DNA from: Candidatus Berkelbacteria bacterium
Lineage (GTDB): Bacteria; Patescibacteriota; UBA1384; JACPKC01
Assembly: GCA_016187225.1 (NCBI GenBank)
Contig: JACPKC010000010.1
Coordinates: 156,590 to 220,589, forward strand
Direction of reading: 5' to 3'
DNA length: 64,000 nucleotides
The notes beneath the pieces were generated by a model that saw nothing but the letters and a program-made list of their open reading frames with translations, had not been told where the DNA came from and searched no databases. Shown here piece by piece: positions 15,249 to 64,000 of the stretch. How positions within the stretch are numbered: the first letter of the stretch is position 1; each line of letters begins with the position of its first letter. The position numbers were made by a program, and so were the translations under genes.

Positions 15249-16058
15249 TTAGTAAATATAGCCGCGAATGACACCACTGGCGCTTTTCATTCTCCGTTTC
15301 GATACTTTGCCCCAGCCGATCATGTTCATATCCGAGACGATTAATTCGTCGCCCTCGACTTTTTCGACATACCCGACATGACCGAGTGGTCCCTCACTAG
15401 TTACAATTACCGAACCAGCTTGAGGCGTTTTCCCAGTTGCAAAACCCGATCTTTGAGCGCTCTTGAGCCAGGCGCTTGCATTCCCCCAGCGATTGGGGAT
15501 ATCTGGTCGACGTTCTTTTGCCCACCAGGTGCAGTAGCCATAGCTGTAAGTGTTACCGGCAGTCGTGGCAGTGGCTTGAAAAGCGCTTGTTTGGGCTGAA
15601 GGTTTGAACGCTCGTCGTACCTGTGTTTTGGCGACCTGGGCAAGTTGAGCTTTGCTAATCCGTTCTGCTTCCTCGCGTGCTTGAAGTTCTTTTTCGGGGC
15701 GGCCAATATCTGTTGTTAGTACGGTTGGCTTCTCGATAAAGCCATCGGCAAGATGCGTTTCATGGGCAGAGGGTGTATCAAAGGGAATTTCTTCAACAGT
15801 TTCAAACGAGAAATCAGCGAGTTGCGCTGTAATCGAGGTTGGCCCGGCGGCGGCCAGCGCCTTATTACTCGCGAGTGGATTCAAGGCGATTAAAAGCACG
15901 GTTGCAATAACAGTCCGCCAGCCACGTTGCAGTGAGGGTTGGATGAGTTTTCGAGTAAGCCAATAACGACGCCGTAAACTCAATCTCCAATTGTGAAAGC
16001 TTCGCTTCAAGCGTATAAGCGGTGGCTCCGCCTGCTCGGCAACCTGAATTGAAGTCAT
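15249..16058 (-). CDS. CHAP-domain peptidoglycan hydrolase with an N-terminal membrane anchor
   Basis: GYCTWWA (catalytic Cys) and GHVGYVE (His) CHAP motifs. Confidence 0.75.
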   Translation of the reverse strand: MTSIQVAEQAEPPLIRLKRSFHNWRLSLRRRYWLTRKLIQPSLQRGWRTVIATVLLIALNPLASNKALAAAGPTSITAQLADFSFETVEEIPFDTPSAHETHLADGFIEKPTVLTTDIGRPEKELQAREEAERISKAQLAQVAKTQVRRAFKPSAQTSAFQATATTAGNTYSYGYCTWWAKERRPDIPNRWGNASAWLKSAQRSGFATGKTPQAGSVIVTSEGPLGHVGYVEKVEGDELIVSDMNMIGWGKVSKRRMKSASGVIRGYIY

Positions 16059-16180
16059 TATTTCTCCTCTCTATAAAACCTATTTTTGGACAAATAAAAT
16101 AACTACCACTGGTAGCTACATGGGGAGTCTAGCAGAGTCAGAAGTACTGTCAAGTTATAATGTGGATAATAGACGTATTC

Positions 16181-16330: not shown

Positions 16331-16975
16331 TTATTCTTGACCCGCAACAACTAACAACTGATCCGGCTTAGGTAAATCACTTTCTTTTAACTCGGCCGAT
16401 TCCCAATCGAGAAGATATTGAACCTCCTGGGCCTCGCTCATAAATCCAGGCAGGTAATAAATTGTTGAAATCTGGTGAGTCGTTTTGGCATTGCCAATCG
16501 ATGAAACATTAATTTGAGCGCTTTTTAATTGATCGCGAATCTTAGCGGCTACCCCAGTCGCGCTCCCGCCATTTAGGACTCTTACCGTGAAAGTCTTTGG
16601 AGTTTTGGGCGCAATTTTTTCTTCTTGAGGCGCGGAATTTGTGGTTGGTTGGTCGAGAATCACCAGCGCGTCGAGTGAATCTTCAATTTGTGCGACAGGT
16701 GCTTTAAATGTTTTTGCGGGCGCGCGAGTGTCATTATCTTCGTCAGCAGTTATAATTTCGTCTGTAAATTTTTCTTCAGCAAGTAATTTTTCGGACAATG
16801 ATTCTGTTTCGCGCGACAGTGTCGGTCGGATAAAAAGGAGCGCTAAAACTGCAACCACAGGCACAAACAATAAAACCCCATCTCTTGATCGCTTCGATCG
16901 AGGTCGAGTGTTGTGAGTTAGCTTTGATTGTAGAACCGTGCGCGGCGACGCTCGAATCCCATCAAAAGTCGGCAC
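16331..16975 (-). CDS. LytR_C (cell-envelope-related attenuator C-terminal) domain protein, membrane anchored
   Basis: VRVLNGGSATGVAAKIRDQLKSAQINVSSIGNA LytR_C motif; N-terminal TM. Confidence 0.65.
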   Translation of the reverse strand: MPTFDGIRASPRTVLQSKLTHNTRPRSKRSRDGVLLFVPVVAVLALLFIRPTLSRETESLSEKLLAEEKFTDEIITADEDNDTRAPAKTFKAPVAQIEDSLDALVILDQPTTNSAPQEEKIAPKTPKTFTVRVLNGGSATGVAAKIRDQLKSAQINVSSIGNAKTTHQISTIYYLPGFMSEAQEVQYLLDWESAELKESDLPKPDQLLVVAGQE

Positions 16976-16993: not shown

Positions 16994-17599
16994 TTAATAG
17001 ATAGGTGAAAATTGTCTAATCACACCGAGCACTCTCCCTTGAATTGAAACGTCATTGGTGTAGATCGGCGGATATTTAGGGTTAGCTGGTTGTAATCGAA
17101 TTCGCCCCTTCTCTTTATAATAGCGTTTGAGTGTCACATTCTCTTCTTCCAGAAGAGCCACCACAATATCCCCATTTTTTGGTTGTTTTGTGCGTTGAAT
17201 TACCACATAGTCTCCGTCTAAAATTCCATCGTGCACCATGGAGTCGCCGCTAACTTTAAGTGCGTATACATCATGACCCATCATTGAGCGTGGAATATCG
17301 ATCGTCTCGTTGGTTCGAATCGCCGCAATCGGATTACCCGCCGCGATCACGCCCAGAAGAGGAATCTCGTGAGTACGCTCATCCCAAGCGGGTGTTACTT
17401 GCACGGCACGCGCGCCTTCATCTTTACAAATATGGCCCTTGAGTCTTAGTGATTCGATATGCTCCGCGACTGTCGCTACCGATTTCAATTCAAAATGTTG
17501 GGCAATTTCTCGGTAGCTCGGCGCATACTCATGATCATTGATATACGTTCGTAAGTACTCAAGAACGGCTTTTTGTTTGGGTGTAGGAAGCTGGTGCAT
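16994..17599 (-). CDS. lexA: SOS repressor LexA (S24 peptidase)
   Basis: N-terminal wHTH, an AAG cleavage site (VIAAGNP), and SGDSM / TLKRYY Ser-Lys dyad motifs. Confidence 0.9.
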   Translation of the reverse strand: MHQLPTPKQKAVLEYLRTYINDHEYAPSYREIAQHFELKSVATVAEHIESLRLKGHICKDEGARAVQVTPAWDERTHEIPLLGVIAAGNPIAAIRTNETIDIPRSMMGHDVYALKVSGDSMVHDGILDGDYVVIQRTKQPKNGDIVVALLEEENVTLKRYYKEKGRIRLQPANPKYPPIYTNDVSIQGRVLGVIRQFSPIY

Positions 17600-17615
17600 A
17601 GTGTTACTTTATACC

Positions 17616-17644
17616 GAACAAAAACCGTAAACAATAGAATTTAT
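17616..17644 (-). promoter_or_regulatory. Putative lexA promoter (-10 TATAAA) with a candidate LexA operator
   Basis: Minus strand reads TTGTTTACGGTTTTTGTTCGGTATAAAGTAACACTATG. The block CGGTTTTTGTTCGG abuts the -10 and is almost identical to the block at the dinB promoter. Confidence 0.45.
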
Positions 17645-18912
17645 CCACATAAGAGTCTTCTGCTTCTTCCGTCTAAAAGGTTGTGCATTTTTACTCCAAC
17701 GCTCCAGCCGCTTTGCACACTTGTTTCGCCAAAGCGGGCTCGAATTTTATTGATTGCCATTGTCAGGTTTGATGAATTAGCGTCGAACGGTAATCGAACA
17801 GGCGCTTGAATTTTTGGAGTCAGAACGGAAACAGTGACACTTGGCATGCGTACTAAAGTCTCCAGAGTTAATTTGTCGCCTCGCTGGCAGGCCGAGGAGA
17901 TGAGCTTCCAGGCATAGCATTCGATATCTCTGTCTGATTCAATTCGGTATGAAGTCTGAAGAGTTGAGCCCCAGCTGGGCGCATTTGTGCGGCGTAAATA
18001 AATTTGAATTGATTGACCGACAAATCCCCTCTTTCTTAGTCGATTCCCCACTTTCTCGCTCAAACGAAATAAGATTGGTCGTAATTCGCGTACCGGTACG
18101 TCGTGCGGCAAAGTGTATTGATGACCGATCGATTGTTCAGCTTTTTGCCGCCAATATGGAACAACACGAGCAAGGTCGATGCCCTGCCCAATCAAATGCA
18201 GTTCTTTTTCGTATGGGAAAACTAATGTCCGCAAGGTATCAAGTGATTGTTGGGTAAGATCGGCCAATGTCTGAATACCGGCGGCGCGCAGTCTTCGGCC
18301 AAGCCGTGGCCCGATACCACACAATTCCTCAACCTGTGTTTGGGTAAAAAGTTCTACTTGTGTCCAGGCCGTTACCCCCTCCCGGCGCAATTTTGCAACT
18401 GTTTTCTCCTCGGCGTTATTTAAAAGTGCGACAAGTCCATCGGGTTTTTGCGATTCGCTTGCCAATTTAGCAAGACGTTTATTACGCGCGATCCCAATCG
18501 AAGCGGTCAGCACCGGCCCGAGTTGATTGTGAAATTTAGTTTTAATCGTGCGAGCGATATTGATAGCTTGTTCCAAGCTAGTATCGATCTCAATGAAGCC
18601 CTCATCGATCGAGAAGGGCTCGACCGCCGGTGAGAATTGCTCAAGAATTTGAAATATATGCTGACTAATTGCCTGATATCGTTCGTAGACGGGTGGCACA
18701 ATGATGAGTTGCGGACAGTGTTTGAACGCTTCCCGACCGTTCATGCCTACCCGAACACCCAGCCGTTTTGCTTCTCTCGAGGGCGCCACAATCACTGATC
18801 GTGTGCCTGGTTTGCCACCCACGCCAATTGCTTTGCCACGAAGCGCCGGATTATATTGTTGCTCGACTGAAGCAAAGAAGCTGTTCATGTCGATGTGTAA
18901 AATCCAGTTCAT
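17641..18912 (-). CDS. dinB: DNA polymerase IV (Y-family, DinB)
   Basis: MNWILHIDMNSFFASVEQ start with a GGAG RBS at spacing 7. The ORF track extends to 18972, but there is no RBS there. Confidence 0.9.
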   Translation of the reverse strand: MNWILHIDMNSFFASVEQQYNPALRGKAIGVGGKPGTRSVIVAPSREAKRLGVRVGMNGREAFKHCPQLIIVPPVYERYQAISQHIFQILEQFSPAVEPFSIDEGFIEIDTSLEQAINIARTIKTKFHNQLGPVLTASIGIARNKRLAKLASESQKPDGLVALLNNAEEKTVAKLRREGVTAWTQVELFTQTQVEELCGIGPRLGRRLRAAGIQTLADLTQQSLDTLRTLVFPYEKELHLIGQGIDLARVVPYWRQKAEQSIGHQYTLPHDVPVRELRPILFRLSEKVGNRLRKRGFVGQSIQIYLRRTNAPSWGSTLQTSYRIESDRDIECYAWKLISSACQRGDKLTLETLVRMPSVTVSVLTPKIQAPVRLPFDANSSNLTMAINKIRARFGETSVQSGWSVGVKMHNLLDGRSRRLLCG

Positions 18913-18991
18913 TTTGATCTCCATTTCGAGTTCCACCATCTGCCAACTTGCGAGGGCGAAGTTGAGAACCATTCACAAACCAGCCTTGTTT

Positions 18992-19020
18992 AATTATACA
19001 CGAACAAAAGCCGAACAAAT
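18992..19020 (-). promoter_or_regulatory. Putative dinB promoter (-10 TATAAT) overlapping a GTTC-N7-GTTC candidate LexA operator
   Basis: Minus strand reads TTTGTTCGGCTTTTGTTCGTGTATAAT. The plus strand reads GAAC(19002-05)-N7-GAAC(19013-16). Confidence 0.5.
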
Positions 19021-19021
19021 T

Positions 19022-19942
19022 GTGGAACTAATTTTGGTCGGCGTTGCCGTGGGGATGTTCTTCTTTGGGATGGGGATGACCAGGCGAGAGTCTGGGGCTT
19101 CGATCAAAAATAAGACTCCGATCAAAAAAGATCTACAGGGTGCCAAGATTGGTGTTGCCTGCATTGAGCCGAATGGCTCGGTTCACGACCTCGAGGCCGA
19201 GGTGATCAATGCCGTCCTGGGGAATGGCGGACACTGTGTGGCCACCAATCGAAAACGAGTGCATGAGCTCATGAAGGGGCTCGACGTTACCGACGGTGGT
19301 GGCCGAATAGTTAATGCCGATCTACTGATCGCCGGCATTGTTACCGAGCAGACCGAGGAGCTCCAACTTGGGGGAGCGGCGACTTATACCCAGGAATTTA
19401 TTGCTTGGGTATTCCACCACTATCCGCGGGCGCTGGACAGGTATCAGTACTTCAAATCTGATTACGAAATTGGTGGTGACAGCAGGTGGAAACCATACCC
19501 GGAAATGGATCTCAAAAAGATCCAGGCACAGTACCAGAAACAGATGCAGGTACAAACCACTGTCTGGAGTGCTCGCAAGCAGTCCCGTCGAACCGTCACC
19601 GTCGATTTTCGTTGCTTTAGCGCCTATGGCGAGGTAATGGGCGCCGGAGTTCTGACGGAGACTGTCAAGAATGCTGACAGCCCAGCGAGCCTGCTGACGC
19701 TCGCCCAGCAGATCGTCGCCCGGTTGCACGTCCACCGGTCGGAAGCGGAGCTCGAGCTCTGGTACGGCGACGCCCGAGCTGCCGCCATTCATCGGCCGAT
19801 CGTGCCACTCGCACCACCCCAGCTCCCGACGAGCTCCAGCCACGTTGAAGAGCAGGCTCCTCCTGCTCCATGGCGTGAAGAACAACCGGAGGGATCACTG
19901 CTCTGCGACTATCGCACCAAGCGGATAGGGGTGGACGACTAG
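19022..19942 (+). CDS. Hypothetical protein A of the GC-rich island, possible N-terminal TM helix; start uncertain (GTG 19022 or ATG 19055)
   Basis: Long ORF in the only open frame. Hydrophobic N-terminus ILVGVAVGMFFFGMGM. Ends 15 nt before a strong terminator. No recognised domain. Confidence 0.45.
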   Translation: MELILVGVAVGMFFFGMGMTRRESGASIKNKTPIKKDLQGAKIGVACIEPNGSVHDLEAEVINAVLGNGGHCVATNRKRVHELMKGLDVTDGGGRIVNADLLIAGIVTEQTEELQLGGAATYTQEFIAWVFHHYPRALDRYQYFKSDYEIGGDSRWKPYPEMDLKKIQAQYQKQMQVQTTVWSARKQSRRTVTVDFRCFSAYGEVMGAGVLTETVKNADSPASLLTLAQQIVARLHVHRSEAELELWYGDARAAAIHRPIVPLAPPQLPTSSSHVEEQAPPAPWREEQPEGSLLCDYRTKRIGVDD

Positions 19943-62461: not shown

Positions 62462-64000
62462 ATGCGCTACGATCACAAAGTAATTGAGCAAAAATGGCAA
62501 AAGCACTGGGCGTCTCGGGACGCCTATCGTACGCCAGTAAAACCTCAAAAAAAGTTCTATTGCTTGGATATGTTTCCCTATCCTTCAGGCGTTGGCTTAC
62601 ATGTTGGTCATCCGCGTGGTTATGTTGCGACCGATGTCGTCAGTCGTTTTAAGCGTGCGCAGGGTTTTGACGTGCTCCATCCAATGGGTTGGGATTCTTT
62701 CGGCTTGCCAGCTGAAAATTATGCAATTAAAACTGGCATTCATCCTGCAACTACAACCGAGCAGTCAATTCGGAGATTTAAGTGGCAACTGCAATCGATG
62801 GGTTTGAGTTACGACTGGGAGCGTGAGATTACTACATCAAATCCTGATTATTATCGTTGGACCCAGTGGCTATTTCTAAAACTTTACGAGCATGGCCTTG
62901 CCTACCAAAAGAAAGCACCTGTTAACTGGTGCCCTTCGTGTAAGACAGTGCTCGCAAATGAACAAGTGACGCAAGGTAAGTGTGAGCGTTGCGGGACAAT
63001 GGTGATTCAGCGCCATCTTAAGCAATGGTTTTTCAAGATTACAGAATATGCTGAAGAACTGTTAGCTTCGCTTGATAACCTTGATTGGCCGGAACCGATT
63101 AAGGTTATGCAAAGGAACTGGATCGGCAAGAGCGTTGGCGCCACGATTCAATTTGCAGTTAAAGAGCATGGATTCACGGTCGATGTCTTCACTACACGGC
63201 CGGAGACTCTGTACGGTGTCACTTACCTTGTCTTGGCGCCAGAGCACTCACTCGTAAAAAACTTAATAACAAAAAATCAACGAACGTTAGTTGAATGTTA
63301 CCAGCAAGAAATTAAAACACATTCCGAACGCGATCGTCAGATGAATGCTAAAACGGGAGTTTTTACCGGTGCGTTTGCGCTTCATCCTCTTACTCAAGTC
63401 AAGCTCCCGATTTGGATCGCAGACTATGTTCTGCCGCATTACGGGAGTGGTGCAGTGATGGCTGTGCCTGCCCACGATAAACGTGATTGGGAATTTGCTC
63501 AAAAATATCGTTTGCCAATAAAGTTTGTCGTCGAGACTAGCAACGAACGTGAAGTGTATACAGAGCCTGGAAAATTAATAAATTCGCCGCTCTGGAAAGG
63601 CCTCCATTCAGAGCGTGATTTTAAACAAATTATTCAAACTCTTGAGGAGCAAAAAATTGGTTTGAGCGATACACGTTTTCGGCTTCGTGACTGGCTAGTC
63701 TCGCGTCAACGTTATTGGGGCACGCCAATCCCAATCATTTATTGCGGCGCTTGCGGAGTTTGTCCGGTGCCAGAAGCAGATTTAGTCGTCGGACTGCCAC
63801 ATGACGTTGATTTTAAGCCGACGGGCGAATCTCCACTTACGCGTTCGAAGGAGTTTCAAAGCGTGCGTTGCCCAAAGTGTCAAGGCAAAGCGCGGAGAGA
63901 AACTGATACCCTAGACACATTTGTTGATTCGAGCTGGTACTTTTTGCGTTTTGTCAATCCGCGTCTTGCAGAGGCGGCCTTTCGGAAATCTGAAATTTTG
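62462..64000 (+). CDS. leuS: Leucyl-tRNA synthetase, N-terminal part; the gene continues beyond the window end
   Basis: MRYDHKVIEQKWQKHW...FPYPSGVGLHVGHPRGY (HIGH motif) and a CP1/zinc region; no stop before the window end. Confidence 0.9.
   Translation, partial: MRYDHKVIEQKWQKHWASRDAYRTPVKPQKKFYCLDMFPYPSGVGLHVGHPRGYVATDVVSRFKRAQGFDVLHPMGWDSFGLPAENYAIKTGIHPATTTEQSIRRFKWQLQSMGLSYDWEREITTSNPDYYRWTQWLFLKLYEHGLAYQKKAPVNWCPSCKTVLANEQVTQGKCERCGTMVIQRHLKQWFFKITEYAEELLASLDNLDWPEPIKVMQRNWIGKSVGATIQFAVKEHGFTVDVFTTRPETLYGVTYLVLAPEHSLVKNLITKNQRTLVECYQQEIKTHSERDRQMNAKTGVFTGAFALHPLTQVKLPIWIADYVLPHYGSGAVMAVPAHDKRDWEFAQKYRLPIKFVVETSNEREVYTEPGKLINSPLWKGLHSERDFKQIIQTLEEQKIGLSDTRFRLRDWLVSRQRYWGTPIPIIYCGACGVCPVPEADLVVGLPHDVDFKPTGESPLTRSKEFQSVRCPKCQGKARRETDTLDTFVDSSWYFLRFVNPRLAEAAFRKSEIL

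Follow-up and report, generated by a model that had tools for sequence, protein, structure and literature searches.

In work from the Erill laboratory, Patescibacteria (Sanchez-Osuna, Barbe and Erill, Environ Microbiol 2017) and Acidobacterium (Mazon et al. 2006) are cited as cases in which direct-repeat recognition by LexA has evolved (PMC7739468), and the patescibacterial direct-repeat motif is cited in PMC8565304 as well. The SOS box of the alphaproteobacteria, as in Caulobacter crescentus, is GTTC-N7-GTTC (PMC9578287 Table 1, PMC12700426), and Acidobacterium capsulatum reportedly has a direct-repeat box of this form as well (Mazon et al. 2006, as cited in PMC7739468). Bacillota and Actinomycetota have the Cheo box, CGAAC-N4-GTTCG (PMC9578287 Table 1). 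Here, we describe two closely similar sequence blocks at the promoters of lexA and of a dinB-like gene in a 64-kilobase (kb) stretch of contig JACPKC010000010.1, the whole of which is referred to below as the window. Comparison with related loci leads us to propose, with a probability of about 0.9, that both blocks are operators for the LexA encoded in the same window, built as a tandem direct repeat of GTTCGG with an 11-base pair (bp) period.

The host of the window is an organism of the Candidate Phyla Radiation (CPR)/Patescibacteria that encodes LexA, since a protein 100% identical to the window LexA carries the label Candidatus Berkelbacteria (Patescibacteria/CPR), and the nearest lexA loci are labelled Berkelbacteria or Patescibacteria. 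The patescibacterial LexA motif shares with the sites in the window the superphylum, the repressor and, as described in the citing papers, the direct-repeat architecture; the targets include lexA and translesion or recombination genes. The 2017 study by Sanchez-Osuna and colleagues reportedly defined a direct-repeat LexA motif for the superphylum by experiment, with validation by EMSA. A direct-repeat LexA box appears, then, to be already known for Patescibacteria, and the present locus appears to be an instance of it. The preliminary description of this stretch had suggested a distinct SOS box for the lineage. The box itself is supported by the comparisons below, but its novelty is not: it adds little, because a direct-repeat LexA motif of Patescibacteria had already been cited (PMC7739468, PMC8565304). 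What the locus does offer is the base-level anatomy of two Berkelbacteria SOS promoters, including the operator, the -10, a predicted leaderless lexA messenger and possible read-through from dinB into lexA, and an indication that a lineage-specific SOS operator can be picked out by reading nothing but the sequence of an uncultured CPR bacterium. A largely lexA-specific DnaA-box element is the sole lead that might be new.

The dinB site in the window matches the alphaproteobacterial box exactly (GTTCGGCTTTTGTTC), with a direct repeat of GTTC, a 7-nucleotide (nt) spacer and no palindrome, whereas the lexA site fits in one half and has TTAC in the upstream half, reading TTAC-N7-GTTC. The GTTC-N7-GTTC architecture put forward in the preliminary description was thus exact at dinB and not at lexA. 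The unit is also longer here than in the alphaproteobacteria, each GTTC being followed by GG and the spacer being T-rich, and the host is a Berkelbacterium, the labels being those of Berkelbacteria and Patescibacteria and not of Alphaproteobacteria or the Acidobacterium clade. The Cheo box has the half-site letters GAAC/GTTCG in common with the window motif, but it is an inverted repeat with a 4-nt spacer, whereas the window motif is a direct repeat. It was excluded, with no match to GAAC-N4-GTTC anywhere in the 64 kb. The E. coli-type box, CTGT-N8-ACAG, was excluded as well: its one match (16804-16819) lies inside an open reading frame (ORF) and is at chance level (1 observed, 0.52 expected). 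The absence of both canonical boxes had been noted from the outset and was borne out by these counts.

Two repeat blocks in the promoters of lexA and dinB

On the minus strand, the shared 13-mer occurs as CGGTTTTTGTTCG at 17615-17627 and as CGGCTTTTGTTCG at 19001-19013, each copy abutting a -10 hexamer. The pattern CGGYTTTTGTTCG has exactly two copies in the 64 kb, both at the lexA and dinB promoters, where ≈0.004 exact copies would be expected. An independent repeat search recovered the identical pair of blocks and aligned them with 12 of 13 positions identical, rather than the 13 of 14 first described. The upstream strings quoted in that description were exact: lexA is preceded by TTGTTTACGGTTTTTGTTCG-G-TATAAA, then 8 nt and the ATG at 17599, and dinB by TTTGTTCGGCTTTTGTTCG-TG-TATAAT. 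Over longer stretches, the two upstream sequences read ...TGTGGATAAATTCTATTGTTTACGGTTTTTGTTCGGTATAAAGTAACACTATG for lexA and ...AGTTCCACAATTTGTTCGGCTTTTGTTCGTGTATAATTAAAC... for dinB. The perfect direct repeat seen at dinB was likewise confirmed, with TTTGTTCG at 19001 and again at 19012, an 11-nt period. The halves of the dinB operator are GTTCGG (19016-19011) and GTTCGT (19005-19000). At lexA, a degenerate upstream half, TTACGG (17630-17625), is followed by a T-rich spacer and a downstream half, GTTCGG (17619-17614). The flanks of the two sites are unrelated to each other. The features of the region are collected in Table 1.

Table 1. Coordinates, strand and properties of the genes, predicted operators, promoter hexamers and DnaA-type boxes in the window.
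Feature	Position	Strand	Properties
lexA, 201 amino acids	16994-17599	-	Pfam PF01726 LexA_DNA_bind and PF00717 Peptidase_S24
dinB-like Y-family translesion DNA polymerase, 423 amino acids	17641-18912	-	Pfam IMS and IMS_C
LexA operator (predicted), lexA promoter	17612-17632	-	GTTTACGGTTTTTGTTCGGTA; 23.3 bits
LexA operator (predicted), dinB promoter	18998-19018	-	TTGTTCGGCTTTTGTTCGTGT; 20.8 bits
-10 TATAAA of lexA promoter	17608-17613	-	overlaps the final 2 nt of the operator 21-mer
-10 TATAAT of dinB promoter	18993-18998	-	read from sequence
Exact DnaA-box consensus TTATCCACA	17641-17649	+	TGTGGATAA on the lexA strand
Degenerate box AGTTCCACA (TCCACA core)	19021-19029	-	3 mismatches, weak; 2 nt from the dinB operator

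The significance of the two blocks rests on the longer motif, and the bare GTTC-N7-GTTC is without specificity. The window contains two matches to the bare pattern, with 2.5 expected, and the second of them is intragenic. Both the bare pattern and a mismatch-tolerant version of the 13-mer occurred at chance frequency and were rejected as search patterns.

Just 8 nt separate the -10 of the lexA promoter from the ATG, so the lexA messenger is probably leaderless, or nearly so, given the predicted transcription start. A similar spacing is found in about 15 related lexA loci and before most copies of a small gene described below, where the operator ends 8-15 nt before the start codon. The dinB messenger has a predicted 5' untranslated region (UTR) of ≈74 nt, counted from its own predicted start, and a GGAG lies 6 nt before the ATG at 18912. 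The N-terminus of the dinB product (MNWILHIDMNSFF) agrees with the start of the IMS domain. The end of dinB and the downstream lexA, both on the minus strand, are separated by 41 nt, and since no terminator was predicted between them (17600-17650), transcription of dinB could possibly read through into lexA. No Rfam family overlaps the lexA/dinB promoter region.

A lone sequence resembling a half-site, TTTTTGTTTGG at 17570-17580, lies in inverted orientation 33 nt from the lexA operator, within codons 7-10 of lexA, which encode a conserved KQK. It scores below a full site and is probably a by-product of coding constraint.

The repeat motif in related promoters

A 21-nt weight matrix was refined from the 200-nt regions that precede lexA in the 80 most similar loci of a one-genome-per-species collection (L001-L080), with the window left out. 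These loci are labelled Berkelbacteria, 'Patescibacteria group' or, by automated assignment, Saccharibacteria. A site of at least 10 bits was present upstream of lexA in 72 of the 80 species. The matrix consensus, ACGTTCGGTTTTTGTTCGGTA, corresponds to GTTCGG-N5-GTTCGG, a direct repeat that has a period of 11 bp and whose spacer is T-rich; the conserved unit is a direct repeat of 17-21 nt, within which GTTC-N7-GTTC is contained. In most species, the site is directly flanked by TTGAC(A) and TAnnnT and fills the spacer between the -35 and the -10. The closest relatives of the window (L001-L005) have the same degenerate TACGG upstream half as its lexA site. Comparative footprinting across related genomes, which the preliminary description had proposed, thus found the direct repeat conserved at lexA, and this conservation, together with the sites at dinB, the small gene and recA described below, supports the non-canonical direct-repeat LexA operator suggested there.

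When the window was scanned with this matrix, exactly two sites exceeded 20 bits, namely the two promoter sites in Table 1; 0.011 sites of at least 20 bits would be expected for independent and identically distributed nucleotides, and the next best site had 12.5 bits. The scores remained high, at 21.8 bits for lexA and 19.8 bits for dinB, when the six closest relatives were removed from the matrix. Each dinucleotide shuffle of the window contained, on average, 0.33 sites scoring 15 bits or more, compared to the two observed. Weaker sites at 63267, 3716 and 7647 (9.7-12.5 bits) occurred at the chance rate and were rejected.

The arrangement of the repeat varies among the related lexA promoters. 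In 12 of the 80 loci (L010, L014, L033, L036, L050, L064, L066-L068 and L070-L072), a second, inverted copy of the operator is found downstream of the -10, in the lexA 5' UTR, usually 28-39 nt from the promoter operator and in one case 69 nt away. In three loci (L053, L054 and L065), the 11-nt unit occurs three times in tandem. Neither an inverted second operator nor such a triple repeat is present in the window.

A dinB homologue lies on the lexA strand, usually upstream of lexA, in 26 of the 80 loci, 24 of which include the 5' end of dinB. Upstream of dinB, or of a small gene followed by dinB, the matrix trained on lexA found a site of at least 18 bits in 20 of these 24. One of the other four, L003, has a weaker site that is still recognisable. 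The distance from the dinB-linked site to the start codon is 12-23 nt in some loci and 270-490 nt in others, where a gene of ≈85 amino acids intervenes. This small gene is conserved and directly follows the predicted operator; it is often leaderless and is usually found just upstream of dinB (L002, L006, L015, L025, L037, L046-L048, L051, L052, L056, L057, L061, L062, L083 and L197). The consensus of its product is ...IxVxASF...KIRxHxFxWRxRxYKVDSxNLFHI...YHFAVS...TLEWxL. An assignment to DUF6504 was not retained, since the resemblance was below threshold (best E 0.012, in 4 of 13 members). The small gene is absent from the window.

Scanning metagenomes with the exact consensus GTTCGGTNTTTGTTCGGTA returned at least 120 matches (L081-L200). 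Among the matches listed, 23 precede lexA, two the small gene, one dinB and one recA, and others precede SRAP and HNH genes. Many matches in high-GC contigs had no promoter context and were set aside as belonging to other lineages or to chance. The recA promoters could be followed further: in six of six patescibacterial loci (L182 and L201-L205), the recA promoter has one site of 21-31 bits. In the five loci besides L182, this site is located between TTGAC(A) and TAnnnT, and no other site in the 5-kb locus reaches 12 bits. The RecA of L182 is of the Saccharimonadia/Parcubacteria type of Patescibacteria, while L201-L205 encode four distinct RecA proteins. A matrix trained on lexA that also marks dinB, the small gene and recA is what would be expected of a direct-repeat LexA operator, and the motif shared by lexA, dinB and recA is thus supported, at the level of sequence, as a LexA-box signature.

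Low-GC metagenome contigs (L171, L195, L156, L162 and L194) have exact operators before genes of the SRAP (PF02586), HNH-endonuclease and 23S_rRNA_IVP families, and the HNH-endonuclease genes in this position are leaderless and have a TTGACA. These genes might be accessory members of the SOS regulon in Patescibacteria. Six other metagenome contigs (L084, L111, L124, L129, L135 and L138) contain GTTCGGTnTTT in longer arrays, repeated in tandem every 11 nt, such as tgttcggtacttGTTCGGTATTTGTTCGGTA. These arrays are not adjacent to lexA and may be iteron-like arrays of unrelated elements.

In the window itself, a divergent ORF on the plus strand (19022-19942) starts 3 nt from the dinB operator and encodes a hydrophobic N-terminus, ELILVGVAVGMFFFGMGM. 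It has no Pfam match and no homologue near lexA across the 80 related loci, and was rejected as a conserved member of the regulon; it could be under LexA control in this window only.

The proposed LexA switch and other explanations

The LexA of the window consists of a winged helix-turn-helix DNA-binding domain followed by an S24 autopeptidase domain (Pfam), with a cleavage site at Ala87-Gly88 and a catalytic dyad of Ser120 and Lys158. Residues A86, A87, G88, S120 and K158 are invariant in an alignment of 21 LexA homologues, and the protein aligns over its full length with the solved LexA structures 3k2z, 1jhh and 3jso. According to the mechanism we propose, the operator occupies the interval from the -35 position to the -10 in both the lexA and the dinB promoter; because it spans the spacer and abuts the -10, a bound LexA dimer should occlude RNA polymerase. 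Upon DNA damage, active RecA would cause LexA to cleave itself at Ala87-Gly88 by means of Ser120 and Lys158, and the vacated operators would allow induction of the translesion polymerase and of lexA. The lexA gene would be under negative autoregulation through the operator with the weaker upstream half-site.

Several points weigh against reading the two blocks as LexA operators. Binding, repression and induction by LexA at the window promoters are inferred. Neither promoter has a recognisable -35, and the consensus sigma-70 scan calls neither of them on account of the poor -35. Shuffles of the T-rich window occasionally score high, with a maximum of 22.8 bits. The genes recA, uvrA and ruvAB were not found in the 64-kb window, either by NCBIfam on 20 large ORFs or by tblastn with E. 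coli RecA, and a homology search with the RecA of L182 returned Saccharimonadia/Parcubacteria types alone, with no Berkelbacteria recA and none on the 320-kb contig of the window. The recA loci are relatives of a recA that had been selected by its motif (L182), and so constitute a biased sample. The check at other SOS genes that the preliminary description called for was thus positive at recA in patescibacterial lineages other than that of the window only.

We considered the possibility that the block is the site of a transcription factor other than LexA, one that controls lexA, dinB and recA. The role of LexA at the block is deduced from sequence, the motif is unlike the best-known LexA boxes, and a second conserved element, TTATCCACA, indicates that other factors act at these promoters. 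However, the strongest and most widespread association of the block is with lexA itself, both in the 72 of 80 species and in the 23 lexA genes among the at least 120 exact metagenome matches listed, and autoregulation is the hallmark of LexA. The remaining targets are classic SOS genes. The direct-repeat motif has, moreover, been assigned to patescibacterial LexA, as cited in PMC7739468. Another factor in the place of LexA is therefore very unlikely.

The block might instead belong to the core promoter, for instance as a conserved spacer or an alternative-sigma element, since it always fills the space between the -35 and the -10 and abuts the -10, and the window promoters are without a normal -35. 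This, too, has a slim chance at best. In 12 species, the copy in the lexA 5' UTR has the opposite orientation and lies downstream of the -10, and in most species the repeat coexists with a good TTGACA and TAnnnT. Such independence of orientation, with good hexamers alongside, favours a protein operator over an element recognised by a sigma factor. The repeat is furthermore restricted to SOS-type genes, with just two sites in 64 kb. That the two promoters resemble each other by local accident or through a recent duplication without function is hardly credible. Only 1.4 kb separates the two sites, and the bare GTTC-N7-GTTC does occur at a chance rate, but dozens of species, with LexA proteins just 50-79% identical to that of the window, have the same motif in the same place within the promoter, and the unrelated flanks of the two window sites do not fit a duplication.

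A DnaA-box consensus upstream of lexA

In E. coli, DnaA and LexA jointly regulate uvrB and recN (PMC6015884, PMC8203912). A DnaA-box consensus also adjoins the predicted LexA operator in an SOS promoter of the window, but here the box is at lexA itself, has been conserved in many species and precedes the core promoter. The exact consensus in the window is 8 nt upstream of the lexA operator, overlaps the stop codon of dinB and is centred near -44 from the predicted transcription start. In 576 kb of related loci, there are 44 exact copies of this element, compared to 5.9 expected, and 33 of the 44 fall within the 250 nt upstream of lexA, a zone that makes up 3.5% of the sequence. With up to one mismatch, it is present upstream of lexA in 49 of the 80 loci, whereas 8.6% of random 250-nt windows contain it. 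Among the metagenome matches listed, 22 of the 23 lexA promoters have a TCCACA-type element, which was not found at the dinB, small-gene and recA promoters from the same consensus scan. Across lexA promoters, the element is located 0-16 nt upstream of the operator or the -35. With its end 21-22 nt away from the -10, the element is too distant to serve as a -35 hexamer.

The identity of the element to the DnaA-box consensus suggests that DnaA may bind there. The lexA promoters of Berkelbacteria and many Patescibacteria might accordingly have two inputs, a LexA operator and a DnaA-box consensus centred ≈41-52 nt upstream of the predicted start, although we regard this arrangement as tentative and rather doubtful. 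If DnaA does bind, the amount of SOS repressor would be tied to the status of replication initiation, and the element would give the SOS switch a second input, in organisms whose regulatory repertoires are minimal. Searches of the window and of the related loci retrieved turned up neither a dnaA gene nor an origin. In the literature that could be searched, lexA itself was nowhere described as having a DnaA box or as linked in this way to replication initiation.

The degenerate box next to the dinB operator of the window (Table 1) has better-preserved counterparts among its relatives: in L001, L002, L003, L005 and L006, the corresponding position ahead of dinB or the small gene holds a box with no more than one mismatch. 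This clade, in which a box precedes the operator of dinB or the small gene, lacks TTGACA and has no usable -35. The same part of the window contains an inverted repeat, AGTTCCAC...GTGGAACT (18929-18942 and 19016-19029), with 14-nt arms that are 86% complementary and 73 nt apart. It encloses the dinB operator together with the -10 and the first part of the 5' UTR, and both arms include the TCCAC core of a DnaA-type box.

The DnaA-box consensus is frequent in the window as a whole, with five exact copies compared to ≈0.5 expected from the base counts, and 25 matches with up to one mismatch compared to 12.6 expected. Besides the copy at lexA, exact copies are found at 2390, 10718, 16161 and 56863; the one at 16161 is intergenic, ≈100 nt upstream of a gene at 15249-16058. 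Three species (L037 near 744, L048 near 101 and L051 near 515) have a weaker site of 18.9-20 bits that resembles the operator and is directly followed by a double box, TTCCACTTATCCACA. This conserved pairing of the two elements is located ≈3 kb upstream of lexA.

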